This document shows positions 51,698-63,751 of a stretch of 64,000 nucleotides of DNA, piece by piece (positions within the stretch are counted from its first letter, which is position 1; every line of letters begins with the position of its first letter). The translations under genes were made by a program, and so were the position numbers. This stretch comes from a virus: IMG/VR virus record IMGVR_UViG_3300028840_003271, positions 1 through 64,000 of that record; one strand, written 5' to 3'. Below the pieces are notes generated by a model, which ran no database searches, was not told the DNA's origin, and saw only the letters and a program-made list of their open reading frames with translations.

Positions 51698-53779
51698 TTA
51701 AGACTGATTTTTATCTACAAGATTAATATAATCTATCCAATCTGATGAAGATGGAGAATTATATAAAACACATGCTAATAGGGGATATTTTTCAAGTAAG
51801 ATTTGTTCATTTAATCCAAAATCTCGTGCTTGAATATCTTGGTCAAAAATTATACAACGTAATTTACTAAGTGACTGTAATTCGGATTGTAATTTACTAT
51901 ATTGTTTTTCGTATTTTCTACTTTTCTCCATAAGTTGTTTAAATAAACCACTAGACAATAATAAACTGTTTTTATCATCGAGAATTTTGCTAAAAATATC
52001 TCTTAAATTTTTGAAATTGTGTCTATAGACATAATACTCCAATAGTTCTTGTAAATTGTGTTTTTTCAAATAATCATTATATTGTTTTTCTAACCACTTC
52101 CAAAAACTTTCACAGACATGTGTATTAGATACATTCTTAACAAACTTATCTGCATAAGCATTTTTTACTCCTATAATTGGTGGTATGGAAATTTTTAGAT
52201 TTTTCAAATTATTTATAATATCTGTAATTCGATTTGGTAATATTGTTGGTGTTTTTAGTGGTGGTTTAATTACTTTATAGTTTGCAATTGGTATGTAAAG
52301 AAAATCTTTAACATCAGATAAATTAACATCTTTCCAACAAGGTTTTATACAACGACGATAAAACGAACGATTAGCATCAAATATATAATATTTATCTCTA
52401 TTTACCATTATTGTATTGTTTGTATTTTTCTTACGAGATGGTTTTGGTAAAGTGCTACTAAATATTAATTGAGAAAAAGGAATACCTACTGTTAGACAAA
52501 AATCTTTAAGGGATTTGTCGTCATATTCACTAATAACGTAAATATGGTCATATTTTCCAGAATTTAATAATTCTTTTGAGCGAACAAACGGACCAGCACT
52601 ATCGTTGACTACAAATCCTACTTTAGACCAAGCAACAATTTGACTTGGTTTATGTGTCAATTGGTGAGTCTTGTTTAAATGTTTAACTTTTACTGGTAAA
52701 TTTCGACACTTAATAAAGTGATTTGCATTTTGACCTTGCCATTGAGCATCGTTTAATAATGTTCGAATAAATCCAGAATTTGCATTATTATATTTTGAGC
52801 GTACAAATTGTCTCGCTTCCCATAAAGTTTTACATTTTAATATACCGTTCGTAACTTGTGATGAAATTTCAGACTTTACTTTATCCAATTTCGATTTAAT
52901 ATTATCTACTGTGTGTGAATTATATTGTAGTCCTTCACGAGAAACATTAACATCAAGTTTTCCAAGATTAAAATACAAATCAAGATTAGTATTTAGTATT
53001 GAATAATAACCTGAGTGATAATTACCAAATTTATCGTTATGTTTTTCTATTGGATAAGCGACATTACCCATAATAGCATTAACAGTTTGTGGATATGTAT
53101 TTTCATACATTTTCCAATCTTTATCTTTACCTTCAAACACTACCGATTTATTTTCTATAGGTATTGTTGGATGGGTTTTTGGAATTGGAGAAAATCTTTC
53201 TACAACTTGCTTTGCCTTTTTTTGAAATAAAGACACATCACTACTTTTAACTCCAAAAGAAATTTCCACACCATTACCATCTCCGTTAGCTGACGCTTCT
53301 CCTAGTTTATGTAGTGTTGGTAATCCACGACTATCTTTAGCAACCACATATGTTGTAGAAATTCCATTATATCTTGAAATTATTGTAAAACTATCAGTAT
53401 AAGCAAGTGGTGATTTACTACCCAATCCCATACATCCAATTAACTCGTTTGTATGAGTTTTATCTGATAATCCATATACTGTGTATATATTATGAATATC
53501 TTCTGAAGATAAACCAGTTCCAAAATCTTTTACTTTGAAAACTGGATCATTACATGTTGGTAAAGTAATTTCAAACGGAATTTCTTTTTTACCTGCTGTT
53601 ATATGACTATCATAAGCATTTGTTGCTAGTTCACGAATTGGTGCTAGAATTTTGTCAGAATAAAGACTGTCACTTAAAAGTTGCATAAGATGTGGAGTAT
53701 TGGCAACACGAAAATTGATACTTTCTTCGTGATTAATACCAGATGTTTTTATTCCACTTGATGGTGTAGAAATTTTCAC
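51698..53779 (-). CDS. rIIA: rIIA-like protein with GHKL (HSP90-like) ATPase N-terminus
   Basis: LYSDKILAPIRELATNAYD, KDFGTG, GCMGLGSKSP, MGNVAYPI, SREGLQY. Confidence 0.85.
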   Translation of the reverse strand: MKISTPSSGIKTSGINHEESINFRVANTPHLMQLLSDSLYSDKILAPIRELATNAYDSHITAGKKEIPFEITLPTCNDPVFKVKDFGTGLSSEDIHNIYTVYGLSDKTHTNELIGCMGLGSKSPLAYTDSFTIISRYNGISTTYVVAKDSRGLPTLHKLGEASANGDGNGVEISFGVKSSDVSLFQKKAKQVVERFSPIPKTHPTIPIENKSVVFEGKDKDWKMYENTYPQTVNAIMGNVAYPIEKHNDKFGNYHSGYYSILNTNLDLYFNLGKLDVNVSREGLQYNSHTVDNIKSKLDKVKSEISSQVTNGILKCKTLWEARQFVRSKYNNANSGFIRTLLNDAQWQGQNANHFIKCRNLPVKVKHLNKTHQLTHKPSQIVAWSKVGFVVNDSAGPFVRSKELLNSGKYDHIYVISEYDDKSLKDFCLTVGIPFSQLIFSSTLPKPSRKKNTNNTIMVNRDKYYIFDANRSFYRRCIKPCWKDVNLSDVKDFLYIPIANYKVIKPPLKTPTILPNRITDIINNLKNLKISIPPIIGVKNAYADKFVKNVSNTHVCESFWKWLEKQYNDYLKKHNLQELLEYYVYRHNFKNLRDIFSKILDDKNSLLLSSGLFKQLMEKSRKYEKQYSKLQSELQSLSKLRCIIFDQDIQARDFGLNEQILLEKYPLLACVLYNSPSSSDWIDYINLVDKNQS

Positions 53780-54363: not shown

Positions 54364-55374
54364 TTAAGATGCCAATGACAAAGCAGTTTTTAAAGCCTTA
54401 TCATTAAGTTTAAGACCAGTACCAAACCACAAATTGTTAAGACGATTATTATTTCGTCCAAGTTCATAATTTAAATACTCATTTACACCAGAATATGCAC
54501 TCCAATAAGTATTACGAATTACTGGATTAGTATTACCTCGTCCAGTTTCACAGAGTTCAATAATACGATTAATTTTGTTCTTAGTTCTTGTTTTAATTTT
54601 TTCGTCAGGAATTTCATCTACATCCAAGACGAGTTTGACATACTTTCTTAAATCTTTAGTGTTAATTTGTTTAGTAGCCAAGTAAGCATACTTTTCTGCC
54701 GTAGCTTCAAATTCAGCATCTACAGTATTCATAATATCTCGAATATCATTTAGGTTGTTGTGTAATTGACTAGTATGTCTTACTCTCAATAATTTAGAAG
54801 AATTATTACTATGAGCAAACCCCAAAGTGTTCGAGCACACAACGCGTATTGGTGTATATCCTACTCTAACAGCAGAACTTCCATCATGTGAGTTTGACAG
54901 AAGAATAAATTTACACACTTCATCATTTTTAGCAACAATTGATGGTTTCTTATTGAGTTGTGCCAAAACCCAAACCTTTGAACCACCACAAAGACTGCCG
55001 GCAGTATGTAAACTACACAATTTAGCATCCAAAAATGGTTGAAACCATTCAAAAGCCTCCTTGTTTTGTAATGGATTATAAGAAGGTCCAACTACTCCCA
55101 ATACTTTATTATCTGTTGAACGAACTACTGCTTGAGAACGAACATTTGGTTTTACTTCAGGAGTATCACAAAATTGGTCAAGTTTATGAGCATAGTTAAC
55201 CGCTGATTGTGCTTGTGGAAGTGTAACCAAATTTTGAAGCTTTACTTCCCAATCCATTCCTGATTTTTCCAATCCCTTTTTAATCGAAAGATTTTCTCCT
55301 TCAGGAATATAGGTTCCTTCACCATGCCACGGAGTTTTTCCAACAAACATCATACTTTCAACTTCTGCTGACAT
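54364..55374 (-). CDS. DUF932-family phage/plasmid protein
   Basis: PWHG.G, LGVVG..Y.PLQN, TAGSL.GG..VW, NSHDGS, TPIRVVC.NT, VRHT. Confidence 0.9.
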   Translation of the reverse strand: MSAEVESMMFVGKTPWHGEGTYIPEGENLSIKKGLEKSGMDWEVKLQNLVTLPQAQSAVNYAHKLDQFCDTPEVKPNVRSQAVVRSTDNKVLGVVGPSYNPLQNKEAFEWFQPFLDAKLCSLHTAGSLCGGSKVWVLAQLNKKPSIVAKNDEVCKFILLSNSHDGSSAVRVGYTPIRVVCSNTLGFAHSNNSSKLLRVRHTSQLHNNLNDIRDIMNTVDAEFEATAEKYAYLATKQINTKDLRKYVKLVLDVDEIPDEKIKTRTKNKINRIIELCETGRGNTNPVIRNTYWSAYSGVNEYLNYELGRNNNRLNNLWFGTGLKLNDKALKTALSLAS

Positions 55375-55439
55375 CTTACTTTCTCCTATATTTAAGAGAA
55401 TAAAAAATTAAAACATCAATGGATAACGAATACACACAA

Positions 55440-56036
55440 TTATTTTTCTTTCATTAATTTAACAGGACTAAGGGATGGATGAAAACTAAACTCGACTCCA
55501 TCTTTATGCTTTTCATTTATTGAACAATAATAACTTCCCCAATTTGTTCTTCCTTGATGAGAATCCAATTCTATTGATCGTTTTCTATCAAATACTTCTT
55601 TGATTAAACAACATCCACACATTTCGGCACATTTTTCAAGTAAAGGTAAAGAAAAAGCATATCCACCATAATAACTTTTTCCAACTATTAGTGTTACTTC
55701 ACTACAAGGTCCAAATTCTTGTTGGTTTACACAACTTGCTCGACTAGACCACGGACCTTTCAATATCTTATCAGTTCCATTTTTCATTTTAATGTTAAAG
55801 TGACACCCTCCAAATCCATTTCCAGGTCGTTTATAATAGAAAAATTTATAAATTCCTTCATATTCTGCTACGTATAATCCATTTTTTTCTTCAAAAATAA
55901 AATTATCCGGTTCTGGTATCTTATCTACCAAAACCTCAAATGTAGGTGAGTTAGCGTAATCTTTATACCAACGAACTCTACAATTTATAATTTTCATGCT
56001 TCCGATCTTTACATGAGAGAATAGACATATGTACAC
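55440..56036 (-). CDS. Hypothetical phage protein (probably starts at MKIINC)
   Basis: GFGG..F...M..G....LKGPWSSR. Confidence 0.6.
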   Translation of the reverse strand: MYICLFSHVKIGSMKIINCRVRWYKDYANSPTFEVLVDKIPEPDNFIFEEKNGLYVAEYEGIYKFFYYKRPGNGFGGCHFNIKMKNGTDKILKGPWSSRASCVNQQEFGPCSEVTLIVGKSYYGGYAFSLPLLEKCAEMCGCCLIKEVFDRKRSIELDSHQGRTNWGSYYCSINEKHKDGVEFSFHPSLSPVKLMKEK

Positions 56037-56460
56037 TCAAATCCCTTATGAGAATATCTTCATATTTATTATGGTAACAATTGGAACATATATACCGTTC
56101 TTGTTCTTCTTTGTAATTATAGTCACTAATCATATTAGTTTCGTAAAAGATTTTAAAACAAATTGGACAAGTTCTTAAACTGTTTATGTCTATGTCTATA
56201 TTCATTTGAATTCGTTTTTCAAACTCGTTCTTAGTTTCATTGTCCTTCATATTACAATATTCTTGACCTAAATAAACTGAACTAGGATAATTATTTGGAT
56301 CACCATAAAAGAAACAAACACCCAATTCTTTAAGAATTAAACCCTTTTCTTGTGCTAACTCTTCTACTCTTTCGTCAAATTCAGATTCTTTTGAACTAAT
56401 ACCAAAAATAGTAAAACTGGTTGAATTGGAATTAGATACAAAACCCTGTCTAATTTTCAT
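55978..56460 (-). CDS. MKIRxGFVSNSSSSSF-family protein 5 (C-terminal CxxC..CxxC)
   Basis: N-terminus MKIRQGFVSNSNSTSF. Confidence 0.8.
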   Translation of the reverse strand: MKIRQGFVSNSNSTSFTIFGISSKESEFDERVEELAQEKGLILKELGVCFFYGDPNNYPSSVYLGQEYCNMKDNETKNEFEKRIQMNIDIDINSLRTCPICFKIFYETNMISDYNYKEEQERYICSNCYHNKYEDILIRDLSVHMSILSCKDRKHENYKL

Positions 56461-56473
56461 AATTTTTTCCTTC

Positions 56474-56565
56474 TTATTGTGTTAGAAAATCAACTACTTC
56501 GTGTGAAAAATTTAACTTTTGTGCTACATATAAAAATAATGAGTGTCTGCTGTAAAATATATCAC
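56474..56565 (-). pseudogene. Remnant of a calcineurin-like metallophosphoesterase
   Basis: GTG overlapping the upstream TGA gives (M)IYFTADTH, the DxH motif-1 N-terminus, then a stop at codon 14. Confidence 0.5.
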
Positions 56566-56855
56566 ATACTCTCTCCTTCCACATGTTCTAAATTTACTCC
56601 AATACTTTGAAGATATTCGTTTACTTTATTTATATCGTGTTGTTCCATTACTCCATGAAAATAATATTTTCCATTTACAATAAAAGTTTCTGTACTTAAT
56701 CTTTTTGTCCAGTCTACATTTTTATCGTTTGCTAAATCTTTTTGATATTTTAACCACTTATCAAACAAAACTATTTGTTTTTCTGTTATAAAGTTTTTAC
56801 CAAGCACAAAACTCGACGACGACGAATTACTTACAAATCCACTTCTAATCTTCAT
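56562..56855 (-). CDS. MKIRxGFVSNSSSSSF-family protein 4
   Basis: N-terminus MKIRSGFVSNSSSSSFV. Confidence 0.85.
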   Translation of the reverse strand: MKIRSGFVSNSSSSSFVLGKNFITEKQIVLFDKWLKYQKDLANDKNVDWTKRLSTETFIVNGKYYFHGVMEQHDINKVNEYLQSIGVNLEHVEGESM

Positions 56856-57321
56856 TTAAGAAATCCTCAATAGGTATTTTGTGATAACCCACTTTAATTG
56901 CTTCTGTATTCAAATCATTATAAGCACCATATGTTTCCATATATGTTCCATAATTATATGCTTTAATAACGTAATCATCTTTATTACAATAAAAAATATG
57001 TTCATGACCATAATGACAACAAGCACTAAATGAAATTTTATTCTCGATAAGAAACTTAATTATATCATCTTGATTACAAACTACACTATATATTAATGAA
57101 TTAGCATCGTTTGGTAAAACTTTATTTTTATCGTATAAAAATCCGTGTTCAAGATGAGAAGGATGTAAACAACTAGAAAACACAAAACCATAATCTAATA
57201 ATTTTTGTGTTTGTAATGGTGTTAAATTGTTTAATAAATTATCTGTATGAAAAAAACCTTTAATCTTTACTACAAATGATGAAGACGAACTATTTGATAC
57301 AAATCCTTGTCTAATTTTCAT
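56845..57321 (-). CDS. MKIRxGFVSNSSSSSF-family protein 3
   Basis: N-terminus MKIRQGFVSNSSSSSFV. Confidence 0.85.
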   Translation of the reverse strand: MKIRQGFVSNSSSSSFVVKIKGFFHTDNLLNNLTPLQTQKLLDYGFVFSSCLHPSHLEHGFLYDKNKVLPNDANSLIYSVVCNQDDIIKFLIENKISFSACCHYGHEHIFYCNKDDYVIKAYNYGTYMETYGAYNDLNTEAIKVGYHKIPIEDFLNED

Positions 57322-57330
57322 TCTTAACTC

Positions 57331-57831
57331 CTAATAATTATCATTGTCTGTTTGAATATAACTATCTTCAGAAAAAAGAAACTTTTCAAGAATTTCGTCA
57401 CTATCAAAGATTTCCATATTTTGATTTTCAGAAGCATTAGATTCGTGGTCAATATATCCATGTTGTTCAGAATTCCAATCATTCCAGCTAGATGGCCAAA
57501 TGAACGCTTTAATTGATGGAATATTTTTTACTAATACTTTTTCTAACATTGACAAATATTGATTACTATATATACTGTTTTCATTATAATTTCTTTTTGG
57601 TTCAGCATATTGACTTTGATAAAAAGCCCATAGAACTTTTGAACCCAAATCATAATACTTTTCAGGGTCCCACCCAAATTCTTTAGTACCAAATATTTTG
57701 TGAACATCAAGAACACCCATTGTATCAACATATTCATCAAACTTTTTAATAAAATTAGTGCTAATTTTACGTCCAACACATACAAAACTTGACGATGATG
57801 AATTACTAACAAAACCATTACGAATTTTCAT
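57331..57831 (-). CDS. MKIRxGFVSNSSSSSF-family protein 2
   Basis: N-terminus MKIRNGFVSNSSSSSFV. Confidence 0.85.
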   Translation of the reverse strand: MKIRNGFVSNSSSSSFVCVGRKISTNFIKKFDEYVDTMGVLDVHKIFGTKEFGWDPEKYYDLGSKVLWAFYQSQYAEPKRNYNENSIYSNQYLSMLEKVLVKNIPSIKAFIWPSSWNDWNSEQHGYIDHESNASENQNMEIFDSDEILEKFLFSEDSYIQTDNDNY

Positions 57832-57849
57832 TTTATTTCTCCCTAATTT

Positions 57850-58893
57850 TTACTCCAAGTTATAAACAAAACAGCTTCGACCATTATTTAAAAGACGACG
57901 ACGCCATTTAATCAGACGTGGATTGGTCCACACATCTTTATGAAAGTCGTTACAGTTTAAAATATCAATGCCTTGCTCCCATTCTGACTCACCTTCAACA
58001 AACGAACACGGAAATCCAAAACCGTTACAATTAATGTAAAATGAAAATAGTGAACTTTCACAAGGTTCCACATATTCGCTCAGTTTGTCATAGTTTGGTC
58101 TGTCTTTAATTGCTGACAAATATATTCCAGCAGAACAGGAATCGAAACCATAAGCAACTCCTAATTGTTCACATAATTGAATAAGTTCACGATATTTATT
58201 AACATCTCGAAGGCTATGATAACCGGACTGTTTACCTTTACCTTTTGGTTTAAATTGTAAAAATACAATAGCATTTAATTTTGACAGACGAGAATCGGTA
58301 GAAATATCTTGTACAACCTGTTTTGCTTTTTCAAAAGTTTCTTCTGCTAATACAAAGTGGATATTAACTTGTTTCATTCCAACATCGGTAAACTTTTGTA
58401 TAGCATTATAGCTTGATTCCTTGTTAACAATACTTACTGCTACAGCACCCAATAATTGAGATGCTTTTTGAGCAACTTCATCAGTTACACCTAATCCATT
58501 ACAAGTAAGATTTGGAATTACTCCTTTTTCTTCTCTTAAAAATTGACAAATTTGCCAAAGTTTAGGATGGCTATCAATATCACAAATACCCAAGGCAACT
58601 TGACACACCGTGTTTGGAATTTTACTCCACAACTTTCTAAAAGTTTTCAAACTCATATATCGTCGTAACTCATTACTACCATTAGACTTATAACACCACC
58701 GACAATTTCCTGAACAGTACCCCTCACTAATTTCAATGTCTAAAAGTTCAACCGATGGAGCATATTGTGGATCATCTTCTTTTGTTTCTCCCCAACGAGC
58801 AAAAAAACCATTCTTTTTTGAGAAGAAAAAATTATAGTCGGGTGAAATGCAAATCTTACATTGTGGATAATCAAGAATTTGCACATTATTCAT
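57850..58893 (-). CDS. Radical SAM enzyme with twitch/SPASM-like C-terminus, embedded in the MKIR array
   Basis: CSGNCRWC; GFDSC, PCES..S.YIN..G...PCSF, C-terminal RSC; start set at MNNVQ, 1 nt after the upstream stop. Confidence 0.9.
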   Translation of the reverse strand: MNNVQILDYPQCKICISPDYNFFFSKKNGFFARWGETKEDDPQYAPSVELLDIEISEGYCSGNCRWCYKSNGSNELRRYMSLKTFRKLWSKIPNTVCQVALGICDIDSHPKLWQICQFLREEKGVIPNLTCNGLGVTDEVAQKASQLLGAVAVSIVNKESSYNAIQKFTDVGMKQVNIHFVLAEETFEKAKQVVQDISTDSRLSKLNAIVFLQFKPKGKGKQSGYHSLRDVNKYRELIQLCEQLGVAYGFDSCSAGIYLSAIKDRPNYDKLSEYVEPCESSLFSFYINCNGFGFPCSFVEGESEWEQGIDILNCNDFHKDVWTNPRLIKWRRRLLNNGRSCFVYNLE

Positions 58894-58894
58894 T

Positions 58895-59266
58895 TTAGTC
58901 ATCCAAATTAATAAGAACAATTGAACCAGAATCAGCAAGTTGCTGTAACTTAGTATTTAGATATTCATCATAGTAACTAATATCTGCTTGAATAAAATAA
59001 TAATCTGGATATTGACTTACTGTTTGAACAATTTCATCACCTTTGATGTAAAAATCAATCATACCATCTTTAATTTTATGTCTAAAAATGTCATTATCAT
59101 ATTCAATACTTGTTTTATTATAACGATAACTATGTGTTTCAATTAAGTCTTTAATATCTACAGATGTAGATTGACCACAAGTTGGACAAGCTTTACTTTC
59201 TTGTGGATAACCAATAACGAATGAGGATGAACTACTGTTACTTACAAATCCTGATCTAATTTTCAT
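58895..59266 (-). CDS. MKIRxGFVSNSSSSSF-family protein 1 (CPTCG knuckle)
   Basis: N-terminus MKIRSGFVSNSSSSSFV. Confidence 0.85.
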   Translation of the reverse strand: MKIRSGFVSNSSSSSFVIGYPQESKACPTCGQSTSVDIKDLIETHSYRYNKTSIEYDNDIFRHKIKDGMIDFYIKGDEIVQTVSQYPDYYFIQADISYYDEYLNTKLQQLADSGSIVLINLDD

Positions 59267-59283
59267 TTTATTTCTTCTTTTTT

Positions 59284-59787
59284 TTAATTAACAACTAAAA
59301 TTTGAATATTACTATATTGATGAATATTATCTATTTCTGTAATAGGAACGTTTTTGACTAATTCGGTTTCATCATAAACAGCTTTAATAGAATTGTGACT
59401 ATATTTGGACACACATAATATGTTATCATTAATTTTATATATATGATAATTTTGTTTAAAATTAGGAATTTGGACAGAACTTGTTATTGAATGAATATGT
59501 ACTAAATCATTTTTAATTTCTTGATTTACCATAATAGAATAACCATGTCTAATGGATCCATGTTTTGTTTTTAATTTCGGATATATTTCAAAATATCTTG
59601 TTGTATAAGGACAAATATTTAATTTTGCTATATGAAAATTATTTTCGTCTAAAATTAGAAGAAATAGATTTAAACTATCTGTATGAGCAACATAACTAAA
59701 CTGTTGTTCAGAACTAAATTCCATATGAAAAAGTGATACTGGACGATATCCACATTCACTCGGCAACACATGTTCTAATAGTTTCAT
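59284..59787 (-). CDS. Hypothetical protein
   Basis: 167-aa ORF, AAGGA upstream. Confidence 0.55.
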   Translation of the reverse strand: MKLLEHVLPSECGYRPVSLFHMEFSSEQQFSYVAHTDSLNLFLLILDENNFHIAKLNICPYTTRYFEIYPKLKTKHGSIRHGYSIMVNQEIKNDLVHIHSITSSVQIPNFKQNYHIYKINDNILCVSKYSHNSIKAVYDETELVKNVPITEIDNIHQYSNIQILVVN

Positions 59788-60013
59788 TACATGTTTCCTT
59801 TTTGTTTCTAGTTACATAACAAGTGTTTTTGGTTTCAGGAAATTTAGTGGTTGCGTTTGTAATACTCAAAGTTTTTATTTTAGTAGAATTTGTAATTTTT
59901 TCTTTTTTTGAAGAAACGGTTTTATTATTTGTTAAAAATTTTAATATATCACTATTTGTAATGTTAAATACTGGTGTACTACTATTACTAATAAAATTAA
60001 CACGAACTTTTAT
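59756..60013 (-). pseudogene. Degenerate sixth MKIR-family ORF with ATA start (85 aa; not in ORF track)
   Basis: GGAG-N7-ATA AAA GTT CGT GTT AAT TTT ATT AGT AAT AGT AGT ACA CCA GTA TTT = (I)KVRVNFISNSSTPVF; open to TGA at 59756. Confidence 0.6.
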
Positions 60014-60300
60014 TTTTGTTCTCCGTTAATTGGTAGTCCAGTTTCAGACAGTGGTAATGAACATCCATAAAGCATTTTCCAATCTGGAAATTTATTTTTA
60101 GCATGACTAATAGCAGACTCTATTACCATAGGCATTGGTAGATCATATGTTAAAAAAGACATAGTATTTCGTCTTCCTAATCTAATCCAAAGCAACTTTT
60201 CTTCTTTTTCATTTTTATTTTTGTTTTTGTTTGATTTTTTTCCAAACACTGTTAACACCTTTTGGTTGAGTGCCGTGTAACAATAAAGCAAAATTTCCAC
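60010..60300 (-). CDS. Hypothetical protein (true start uncertain)
   Basis: Overlaps the GP88-like gene; only the C-terminal part fills a gap. Confidence 0.4.
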   Translation of the reverse strand: MEILLYCYTALNQKVLTVFGKKSNKNKNKNEKEEKLLWIRLGRRNTMSFLTYDLPMPMVIESAISHAKNKFPDWKMLYGCSLPLSETGLPINGEQK

Positions 60301-60916
60301 GATTTGTTAAAGCGTGTAATTCAGTAGAACTAACGGGTAAAGATAAAGACCGTGCTGATTTTTTTGTAAATAAAACACGACTATTTTTAAGACGGTATTT
60401 TTCAATTAAAAAGTCGTGAGTTCCTCCATATGATGCTGTTAAAATAAAATTCGGAGGAACTTCACGACGACATTCTATCCAAAACGGCAATGCTTTAGTA
60501 TAAGCATAAAATTTTATATCTGGATGTTTTTCTGCTAGTTTACACGCTGCTTGAAAATATTCCTTTTTGAAAAAATCACCAGCAGTATGAAATCGTATAA
60601 TTGAAGCATCAATAGGAAGTGTGCGGTCCATCAAGTTAGTTAGGTTATTCACACCACGAGTACTTTTTATACACTCAAAATTAGATTTATGGAGAGAAAA
60701 AGTATGTGGATATAACGCTTCCAATGATACAGCATAACATCTAAATTTACACGACGGACTATCTTTTACTTTACGTTGTCCATCTATTATTACTACTTTT
60801 GATTTACAATCTTTAGCAAAAGGACAAGAATATCCCGCTAATAAATCAAGCGAGTAAACCTTTCCTGTAAAAGGAATTTTTTTAAGTTTGGTGTTTGCTG
60901 GACTATATTTTAACAT
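60215..60916 (-). CDS. GP88-like phage protein
   Basis: NTKL, LLAGYSCP..C...CYA, IRFHTAGDF, FYAYTK, PPNF.L.AS. Confidence 0.75.
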   Translation of the reverse strand: MLKYSPANTKLKKIPFTGKVYSLDLLAGYSCPFAKDCKSKVVIIDGQRKVKDSPSCKFRCYAVSLEALYPHTFSLHKSNFECIKSTRGVNNLTNLMDRTLPIDASIIRFHTAGDFFKKEYFQAACKLAEKHPDIKFYAYTKALPFWIECRREVPPNFILTASYGGTHDFLIEKYRLKNSRVLFTKKSARSLSLPVSSTELHALTNRGNFALLLHGTQPKGVNSVWKKIKQKQK

Positions 60917-60918
60917 TT

Positions 60919-61332
60919 TTATTTTATTTTATTCACCTGTAAGTAAAGATTAGTTACAAAAGTGTCTTGTGGACGATTAAAAATTAGATTATGATTCACT
61001 CTTAACCAATCAGACACACAATATAAAAATCCTCCACAACATTTTCTTTTATTATCTACAATTCTAGGAGTGTATCTATATGCTTTTGCCCAAAGGTGTG
61101 AAGGTTGATATGAACACAAAGAAATTGGAATTAAATACTTGTTATTAACACCTGAAGGTTTGCCTTTCCAAAGAGTTAATTTAATTTTTTGTGGCTTACA
61201 TCCTAGCTTTTTAATAAATAGTCTTGGACACAATGTAGTTGTGCCTGAAGAAAAATTCAATCTATATTTTCGGTGTTGCAAATTCGCTACTCGACTAAAC
61301 AATATTTGAGACATTCTATTTCTCCTATACAA
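60919..61332 (-). CDS. Hypothetical protein (probably starts at MSQILF after AGGAG)
   Basis: 137-aa ORF. Confidence 0.55.
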   Translation of the reverse strand: MYRRNRMSQILFSRVANLQHRKYRLNFSSGTTTLCPRLFIKKLGCKPQKIKLTLWKGKPSGVNNKYLIPISLCSYQPSHLWAKAYRYTPRIVDNKRKCCGGFLYCVSDWLRVNHNLIFNRPQDTFVTNLYLQVNKIK

Positions 61333-61597
61333 TTAGAAATTAATAGATACAATAGATACTAATAGTAACAACTTGTTTGTTTTTGATACAATAGTATTAT
61401 TGAGGGAAAAAAGTATAATGTAAAGATTACCTTACTAATACTATAACTATTTTCTTTCCTCTATAAATACTTTTTATTAGCAGGTTAGAAGTTTTTACTG
61501 GATGATTTATTTTTAGTGGAAGTATAACTTTTTATTGTAACTTTTTTATGATGTTTTTGACAATTTGATACTATATAGATACATATAGAGCGAACAT

Positions 61598-63049: not shown

Positions 63050-63751
63050 CTAACTATATGTATAAGAGAGACATTTATTTTGCTCTGTTTTTGGAAATTG
63101 AAAAGTAAATTTTAATTCTTCAAGTTTTCGTGGTGAAATATCTTTGTAACATCGACTGTCTTGATATGCTTCAATATCATTTAGTTCTTGACAAATTTCC
63201 CAGTAGTCATGAATATGAATGTTACCAACTGTTGGTGATTCTAAACAATCACAAGGTTTAATGTCTCCATTAGGTTTAATCATAACGTCACACCCAAAAC
63301 ATTCTTCACTACCTTCTAAACATCTTCCACTTTTTATAAGATTTTCGGAAGTATTTCTTATTGCTTTAAATCCACTAGTATTATAACGACAGGTTCCTAA
63401 CGCTTGAAAAACCCTAACTACTTCTTTATCTATTGGTTCATGAAATTTATCTTGAGACAGTTCAGCATGTATAACATTTTTTTGAGTTAGTTTTGCTAGT
63501 AACAATGCTCGTTCTTTTAGTTTACCATTAGTGATAATACTAACGTAGTTTACAGACGCTATTGCTAGACATAATATTTTTTCAAATTCAGGATGTATTG
63601 TTGGTTCACCACCACCTAGACAGATAAATTCATCAGTAAACTCTAGACATTTTTTAAACGTGAATAAACTCATATCTTCACCATTTGAAGTACAAGCAAA
63701 TCCACAATGACTACAATGCATATTACATTTTGAAGTTATTTGAACGTACAT
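63050..63751 (-). CDS. Short radical SAM protein
   Basis: CNMHCSHC, GGGEPT.HP, TNG, C...D..I.P.G.I.PC. Confidence 0.9.
   Translation of the reverse strand: MYVQITSKCNMHCSHCGFACTSNGEDMSLFTFKKCLEFTDEFICLGGGEPTIHPEFEKILCLAIASVNYVSIITNGKLKERALLLAKLTQKNVIHAELSQDKFHEPIDKEVVRVFQALGTCRYNTSGFKAIRNTSENLIKSGRCLEGSEECFGCDVMIKPNGDIKPCDCLESPTVGNIHIHDYWEICQELNDIEAYQDSRCYKDISPRKLEELKFTFQFPKTEQNKCLSYTYS

Follow-up and report, generated by a model that had tools for sequence, protein, structure and literature searches.

Radical S-adenosylmethionine (SAM) enzymes with SPASM or twitch auxiliary clusters are associated with two-electron oxidations: anSME and BtrN dehydrogenate alcohols, and the maturases of RiPPs (peptides made by ribosomes and then modified post-translationally) establish thioether or C-C cross-links. 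SkfB and BtrN are enzymes of the twitch-domain kind. We have analysed a 64,000-nucleotide stretch of viral DNA (the window), which is the first 64 kb of the IMG/VR record IMGVR_UViG_3300028840_003271, a genome totalling 170,004 bp with direct terminal repeats; the GC content of the window is about 30%. An original prediction, made from the letters alone, had pointed in it to five intact minus-strand open reading frames (ORFs) beginning with the same 16-residue sequence (the tag), and to a radical SAM gene lying inside this array. All five ORFs were confirmed at their coordinates, as were the CSGNCRWC motif of the enzyme and its start one base past the stop codon of the first tagged gene (Table 1). 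Our preferred interpretation, held with moderate confidence, is that the tag, exposed at the N-terminus of many unrelated proteins, is recognised by the enzyme and undergoes an oxidative modification.

The tag and its association with the enzyme

The five window copies share the tag consensus MKIRxGFVSNSxSxSF, in which 13 of the 16 residues are invariant, and the conservation among them ends after about residue 18. The motif had been described as near-invariant, which holds, whereas the ending NSSSSSF given for it is wrong for copy 5, where NSNSTSF is found. The codon strings quoted in the original prediction are exact: the serine codons of the tag alternate between AGY and TCN from copy to copy, and the DNA identity of the tags is only 28–39 of 48 nucleotides while the encoded peptide is nearly identical, which indicates that selection acts on the peptide and that the copies do not result from recent duplication. 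In a six-frame scan of the whole genome the motif comes up exactly five times; each occurrence opens an ORF, and all lie on a single strand within 3.3 kb. The radical SAM gene of the array is the sole member of its family in this genome.

Using a degenerate DNA pattern that described only the tag, with threonine allowed at each serine position, at least 120 loci were retrieved from IMG/VR as pieces averaging about 8 kb, many of which carry two to nine tagged genes. In the tagged proteins K2, R4, G6, F7, V8 and N10 are fixed, and threonine is seen at positions 9, 13 and 14 (the latter also accommodating alanine or cysteine) and never at positions 11, 12 and 15; residues 1–16 of the tag are devoid of glutamate. 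A profile of the five window proteins is matched by 9,398 clusters (50% identity) among 1.84 billion, and in nearly all of the 150 best of these 9,398 clusters the tag match begins at residue 1, and the few tags that look internal come from read-through in the gene calls and still have the M, V or L encoded by a start codon of their own. Within PHROGs, phrog_7397 matches the tag part only of the tagged proteins.

The distribution of the enzyme follows that of the tag. A homologue of the window's tag-associated radical SAM enzyme, spanning more than half of its length, is present in 40 of the 120 viral tag loci listed, always on the same strand as the tag and usually within a few hundred bases, accompanied by arrays of one to nine tagged genes mostly located downstream of it. 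For the remaining loci the whole source records were searched with a profile of 31 radical SAM proteins, and 40 of these 68 other records hold the enzyme elsewhere. Of the 68, those with a completeness of at least 90% number 17, and each of them has it, so that the search for tagged genes without the enzyme, proposed with the original prediction, returns none among such records, and every record devoid of it is a fragment whose completeness does not exceed 45%. Conversely, homologues around 35% identical to the enzyme occur in 172 cultured phage records, and all seven cultured phages checked (KP15, Vibrio phage D479, Cronobacter JC03, Citrobacter Citrof4, phT4A, RB43 and Lw1) bear two to five exact tags, the reversed-pattern controls giving zero to one match per genome. 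These results support a link in both directions between the tag and this radical SAM subfamily. Within 4 kb of 42 viral radical SAM genes no untagged family is found in more than three loci, and no protease, transporter/exporter or RiPP recognition element (RRE) gene recurs; the module thus consists of the enzyme and the tagged proteins only.

Tagged bodies, predicted structures and the enzyme

Once the tag is removed, the 249 unique tagged proteins of the viral loci (80–300 residues) separate into 91 BLAST clusters. Profile-profile comparison with HHalign, carried out on the 14 largest body families, the T family of the bacterial cassettes described below and the three window copies that belong to no family, yields only three links above 80% probability between families; copy 5 is distantly akin to the largest body cluster (81%), and phage body cluster 4 corresponds to bacterial T (97%). 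Pfam domains, those of sulfatases included, are absent from 97 body representatives except for one weak DUF match, and the five window proteins have no match in Pfam, NCBIfam or PADLOC. The tag is thus supported as a portable module on otherwise unrelated bodies, and to call these proteins phage effectors, as had been proposed, stays an assumption given the lack of any Pfam domain in the representatives. One of the 97 matched phrog_132, a head-tail adaptor family, with E 3.3e-10, and was not among the ten longest when these were rescanned.

We have obtained AlphaFold2 models for two body families. The model of copy 2 has a mean predicted local distance difference test score (pLDDT) of 86, with residues 1–4 and 6–10 below 50 and a strand at residues 16–18; it has no fold match in the PDB (Foldseek E >1; VIA-align Z ≤2.6) and matches in the Atlas only viral hypothetical proteins. 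The model of copy 4 has a mean pLDDT of 69, with residues 1–11 below 50 and strand 1 at residues 14–18, and adopts a generic ferredoxin-like beta-alpha-beta-beta-alpha-beta fold for which Z is at most 7 and the matches start at residue 10–14. The two predicted folds differ, residues ~14–18 form strand 1 in both, and residues 1–11 are unpacked against the body in either of them. As inferred from these models, residues 1 to about 12 of the tag are probably an exposed flexible peptide, and residues ~13–18 (SSF plus two hydrophobic residues) would anchor it as the first strand of any body. The suggestion that the bodies are unlike one another is therefore borne out by the clusters, by the scarcity of HHalign links and by the two folds, nor does the tag form a strand within a single domain common to the proteins, a possibility that the original prediction had set against itself.

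The models also bear on two explanations in which the enzyme does not act on the tag. In the first, the tag is an intrinsic element of each protein, either a serine-rich loop between strands that holds an anion, metal or cofactor or a part of an active site completed by acidic C-terminal motifs (DNDN, MDNFDM, SDNDG), and the radical SAM enzyme works in the same pathway, for instance by making a ligand. The common position of strand 1 and the conserved, catalytic-looking Asp/Asn/His motifs of several families (in copy 2, YIDHQS and TDNDN) would fit this proposal, which we nevertheless regard as rather improbable: residues 1–11 do not pack on the body, no cofactor-binding family is matched, and a shared active site is unlikely since the bodies differ in fold and have no detectable homology. 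In the second, the tag is a self-processing site at which serinolysis within the serine run leaves an N-terminal pyruvoyl group or removes the first residues independently of the enzyme. Pyruvoyl enzymes do self-cleave at X-Ser bonds, and a Ser-Ser run is present close to the N-terminus of the tag, but a pyruvoyl group arises only where a particular fold surrounds the scissile bond, while the folds here differ, and the obligatory presence of the enzyme is left unexplained, which renders this option scarcely credible.

Concerning the enzyme itself, the window protein matches its PHROG with E 3e-73 and contains a CX3CX2C motif (C-S-G-N-C-R-W-C) whose first and third cysteines are invariant, and the second nearly so, across 31 homologues; its conserved C-terminal cysteines are C253, C278, C296 and C341. 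The phage radical SAM profile matches SkfB, its nearest solved relative, over most of its length (E 3.5e-4), and BtrN weakly (E 0.03); the pentatricopeptide repeat proteins that ranked higher in the PDB were rejected as repeat artefacts over 30 residues. Against the phage profile, full-length bacterial homologues have E values of 1e-65 to 1e-73, and they exceed the Pfam Radical_SAM, Pfam SPASM and TIGR04085 cut-offs, one of them scoring 57.3 bits on Radical_SAM; the nearest NCBIfam models of the bacterial enzyme are those of the peptide maturases MftC, WgkB, GeoRSP, KxxxW, PapB, StsB and SkfB, and no equivalog cut-off of NCBIfam is reached. In the alignment, the bacterial branch has the complete CX2CX5CX3C...C tail, and with it the seven cysteines that define SPASM (PF13186/TIGR04085), whereas the phage branch, the window protein included, ends after the first cysteine of this tail, lacks the full set and keeps four conserved auxiliary cysteines. 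For this reason we describe the phage enzyme as a twitch-like truncation: the window protein corresponds to the definition of a twitch domain (truncated SPASM, one auxiliary cluster on three to four cysteines), and its cluster binding is predicted from sequence. Taken together, the SkfB and BtrN profile matches, the bacterial SPASM relatives and the conserved auxiliary cysteines agree with the twitch/SPASM kind originally assigned.

Some irregularities were noted among the radical SAM genes. In many phage proteins (L033:1397-2458, L021, L082 and others) 9–23 residues are inserted between the first and second cysteines of CX3CX2C, a non-canonical spacing for the SAM cluster. The gene is in two pieces, or two coding sequences, at G033:43219-44962, G041:64487-65650 and L171:3198-5013, and is likewise split in RB43 (AY967407, 92778-93807) and in Cronobacter phage leB, and in Vibrio phage D479 a homing endonuclease gene adjoins it (L002:5076-5804); the split genes and the adjoining endonuclease suggest recurrent invasion by mobile elements or introns. 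Two further matches, G011:49122-49643 and G031:87446-88465, contain in-frame stops, three TGA and one TAA in one and a single TAG in the other, and could be pseudogenes or reflect stop-codon recoding.

Bacterial cassettes and the proposed modification

The tag pattern also matches 69 loci in bacterial and archaeal assemblies, with the enzyme in the same 8-kb piece in 36 of them; some of these loci are probably phage contigs binned into metagenome-assembled genomes. A distinct radical SAM clade, scoring about 220–245 bits, is found on large chromosomal contigs of Acetatifactor muris (L134), Veillonella parvula (L154, L147 and L180), Lachnobacterium bovis (L174), Sulfuricurvum (L168 and L173), Acidobacteriota and Verrucomicrobiota; the loci L179 and L202 also have the cassette. 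The gene order is conserved as X, T, radical SAM/SPASM and, in some, Y, with T in single copy. X, of about 140 residues, is present in 17 cellular loci but in none of the viral loci. T has 137 residues, starts with MKIRxGFVTNSSSTSF and has a conserved C-terminal part, FFCC...IYFNG....W, ending in an invariant tryptophan. Y has about 300–330 residues, was found in seven cellular loci (three examined: Acetatifactor, Veillonella and Lachnobacterium), and its C-terminus matches PF21648, an integron cassette protein. Counterparts of X and Y are absent from the viral tag loci listed and from the window genome; X and T have no match in Pfam, NCBIfam or PADLOC, and the Atlas returns only hypothetical proteins for them. 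The variant of the tag follows the clade of the enzyme, being T9/T14 in bacteria and S9/S14 in phages.

The neighbours of these cassettes match the Avs, LmuA and SIR2-HerA models of PADLOC-DB v2: the Acetatifactor cassette adjoins Avs-like protease-NACHT and MBL genes, and that of Sulfuricurvum adjoins SIR2-HerA. X, T and Y themselves have no match in PADLOC-DB v2 and the cassette fits no PADLOC model; the similarity of the enzyme to pVip is generic only (E 4e-14 for a bacterial protein, 0.006 for the window protein). That the X-T-radical SAM cassette has Avs and SIR2-HerA genes as neighbours hints at a connection with anti-phage defence.

This distribution weakens a further option of the original prediction, in which the tag is a packaging or injection address in the style of the T4 internal proteins, or some other localisation or degradation signal, and the enzyme a mere neighbour. 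The tag is indeed N-terminal and portable, is carried by diverse small proteins and is found in T4-like phages, and one tagged representative matched a head-tail adaptor PHROG. This option leaves unexplained, however, both the enzyme in all 17 records at least 90% complete and the single-copy bacterial cassette next to defence genes; moreover, the T4-type prohead-protease site is (L/I)xE, for which the tag has no glutamate. We thus consider it very unlikely.

According to the modification that we favour, an enzyme of the SPASM/twitch kind dedicated to this task and the tagged proteins would make up a two-component post-translational modification module, in which the tag would be recognised on small proteins that vary from one set to another and are unrelated apart from it. 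Residues 1 to ~12, if flexible, could reach into the enzyme, where a radical modification, probably a two-electron oxidation, would take place inside the tag. Candidate products are formylglycine, arising from serine at S11, S12 or S15, and a C-C cross-link, for example from Phe7 to Ser9 in the F-x-S triplet. From the kind of enzyme and from its association with the tag we infer that the latter serves as substrate and undergoes oxidation; the two-electron chemistry of SPASM/twitch enzymes favours either product and speaks against a glycyl radical at RxGF. The latter was rejected also on motif spacing, position and enzyme type: the glycyl-radical fingerprint is RVxG[FWY], with arginine three residues before the glycine, it lies in a C-terminal domain and its activase has no SPASM or twitch domain, whereas in the R-x-G-F of the tag arginine stands two residues before glycine, at the N-terminus of unrelated small folds. 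A lead towards DNA modification was dropped, as the 'unknown DNA modification' of the KP15/KP27 genome paper differs between two phages, both of which have the module.

A docking function without any modification needs to be weighed most carefully against this proposal. Here the tag would plug the proteins into the radical SAM enzyme, perhaps by adding a strand to the conserved YNFxF...G.FARWG segment at the N-terminus of the latter, and the bodies would be interchangeable adaptors or regulators bringing targets such as host or defence proteins, nucleic acids or metabolites. The evidence of adjacency and portability is the same for docking as for modification, the tag is exposed in both models, and many bodies resemble binding modules (zinc ribbons, small alpha/beta domains). 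On the other hand, docking motifs rarely need 13 invariant residues in 16, the exclusion of threonine at S11, S12 and S15 when it is tolerated at 9, 13 and 14 has the appearance of a chemical constraint and not of one on binding, and the nearest relatives of the enzyme act directly on the bound peptide, so that docking alone appears unlikely to us, though not markedly so.

Several points weigh against a modification of the tag by the enzyme. Their co-occurrence fits docking equally well, and the covariation between tag variant and enzyme clade could be explained by shared ancestry. The low pLDDT of the invariant segment may have its cause in missing covariation and not in true flexibility, and 16 near-invariant residues are far above the conservation typical of RiPP leaders, which makes this analogy imperfect. 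The window enzyme scores 19 bits on Pfam Radical_SAM, below the cut-off of 29.5, and its family placement therefore rests on the motif, the PHROG match and transitive homology. Only some three lineages are covered by the seven cultured phages. Finally, T4-like phages have tagged genes around 20 kb away from the enzyme, so that adjacency is not universal: in KP15 (NC_014036.1, 64500-73000, L133) the tagged genes are KP15_97 and KP15_102 and the enzyme is KP15_135, some 20 kb off. In KP15-like and RB43-like T4-type phages the tagged genes flank a 738-residue vWA/MIDAS gene (KP15_100).

As to function, single-copy cassettes in bacterial defence islands on one side and multi-copy arrays in phages on the other suggest a role of the modified proteins in phage-host conflict. 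A more specific version, which is speculative and on balance doubtful, is that a universal handle of 16 residues, attached by phages to thousands of unrelated small binding domains, receives from the enzyme a group that is reactive or cross-linked, for instance a formylglycine aldehyde or a strained cyclophane, resulting in modular enzyme-armed effectors, and that the single-copy bacterial X-T-radical SAM/SPASM cassette is an undescribed defence system. Altogether, the data point to a widespread protein-modification system. If this is correct, radical SAM maturases would be put to a new use: instead of one peptide family, a single enzyme would serve thousands of folded proteins that are unrelated but share a portable handle at the N-terminus (the 9,398 clusters). 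Many phage 'dark matter' genes would also gain their first entry point into function. Such genes are present in long-studied coliphages (RB43 and Lw1, for example) and in therapy-candidate Klebsiella phages of the KP15 group, and since Lw1 grows on E. coli BL21(DE3) the system is testable at once. A short transferable tag that steers a site-specific radical modification could also become a protein-engineering tool.

Locus organisation and comparison with known systems

The features of the array and its surroundings are collected in Table 1. Copies 3 and 4 overlap by 11 nucleotides, and the family of copy 4 has the signature LTxxQ...W.I...G.T.MDNFDM..FL..IGV. A promoter and terminator scan of positions 55000-61500 remained at background, with 45 sites against 39 expected. 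The GP88, DUF932 and HATPase_c_3 neighbours were not found to recur with the module elsewhere. The second radical SAM protein resembles W-cofactor maturase and viperin models and is only distant kin of the module enzyme (E 7e-4 against its profile). This gene, the GP88 gene and the two other ORFs of the table have no homologues among the 120 tag loci listed and are for this reason excluded from the module.

Table 1. Coordinates of the tagged array and of neighbouring features in the window
Feature	Position	Strand	Description
Second radical SAM gene	63050-63751	-	233 aa; Pfam Radical_SAM 38 bits; weak SPASM match
GP88-family gene	60215-60916	-	PF17338, E 1.6e-31
ORF	59284-59787		
Tagged copy 1	58895-59266	-	123 aa, intact ORF; start MKIRSGFVSNSSSSSF; CPTCG in body; few relatives
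Radical SAM gene	57850-58893	-	347 aa from ATG at 58893; phrog_7293; CSGNCRWC plus four conserved C-terminal Cys; twitch-like
Tagged copy 2	57331-57831	-	166 aa, intact ORF; full-length family with GxxEFGW, YIDHQS, DSYIQTDNDN
Tagged copy 3	56845-57321	-	158 aa, intact ORF; own body family with CNxDE...HYGH
Tagged copy 4	56562-56855	-	97 aa, intact ORF; commonest small (~90 aa) body family
Tagged copy 5	55978-56460	-	160 aa, intact ORF; tag variant MKIRQGFVSNSNSTSF; CPIC...CSNC zinc-ribbon-like motifs
ORF	55440-56036		
DUF932 gene	54364-55374	-	E 1.8e-47
HATPase_c_3 gene	51698-53779	-	693 aa; 24.4 bits against the Pfam cut-off of 25; E 3e-5

The original prediction knew of no described function for the motif and, in agreement, full-text literature searches found no description of it, nor of phage radical SAM enzymes with serine-rich paralogs, radical SAM/SPASM enzymes in defence islands or viral RiPPs matching this system; the genome paper of KP15 and KP27 makes no mention of the enzyme or of the tagged genes. 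The comparison is therefore with systems that share parts of its architecture. Like the module enzyme, the RiPP maturases of the SPASM and twitch kinds (SkfB, MftC, StrB/SuiB KxxxW, WgkB, PapB/CteB and three-residue cyclophane enzymes such as FxsB) are radical SAM proteins with a C-terminal auxiliary Fe-S domain, adjacent to which lie a single gene or a few genes with a short conserved sequence in common, and the F-x-S triplet of the tag is one that we take to resemble the Fxs cyclophane motif. However, the 'precursors' of the module have 80–300 residues and fall into at least 91 unrelated body families, the two modelled differing in fold; the tag occupies the very N-terminus and varies far less than a RiPP leader does, and what varies is an entire domain and not a core peptide. 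There is also no short leader-core precursor or recurring protease or exporter; PqqD/RRE was not seen in Pfam scans of the window and bacterial proteins, though an RRE may yet be present, and the phage branch has lost the second SPASM half present in SPASM maturases.

A second comparison is with anSME/AtsB and BtrN, radical SAM enzymes with auxiliary clusters of which anSME oxidises the serine CH2OH of a full-length protein and BtrN a secondary alcohol. The serine-rich tag, with three serines that are never replaced by threonine, is reminiscent of the anSME context; yet it has no (C/S)-x-(P/A)-x-R motif, the bodies are not sulfatases, a single enzyme serves many unrelated proteins and no anSME model is among the NCBIfam matches listed for the enzyme. 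Lastly, the T4 internal proteins have in common with the tagged proteins a short N-terminal sequence shared by diversified small phage proteins, and the tagged system occurs in T4-like phages as well; with respect to the T4 capsid-targeting sequence, though, the tag differs in sequence, has no glutamate, is tied to a radical SAM enzyme and is also found in bacterial chromosomal cassettes.

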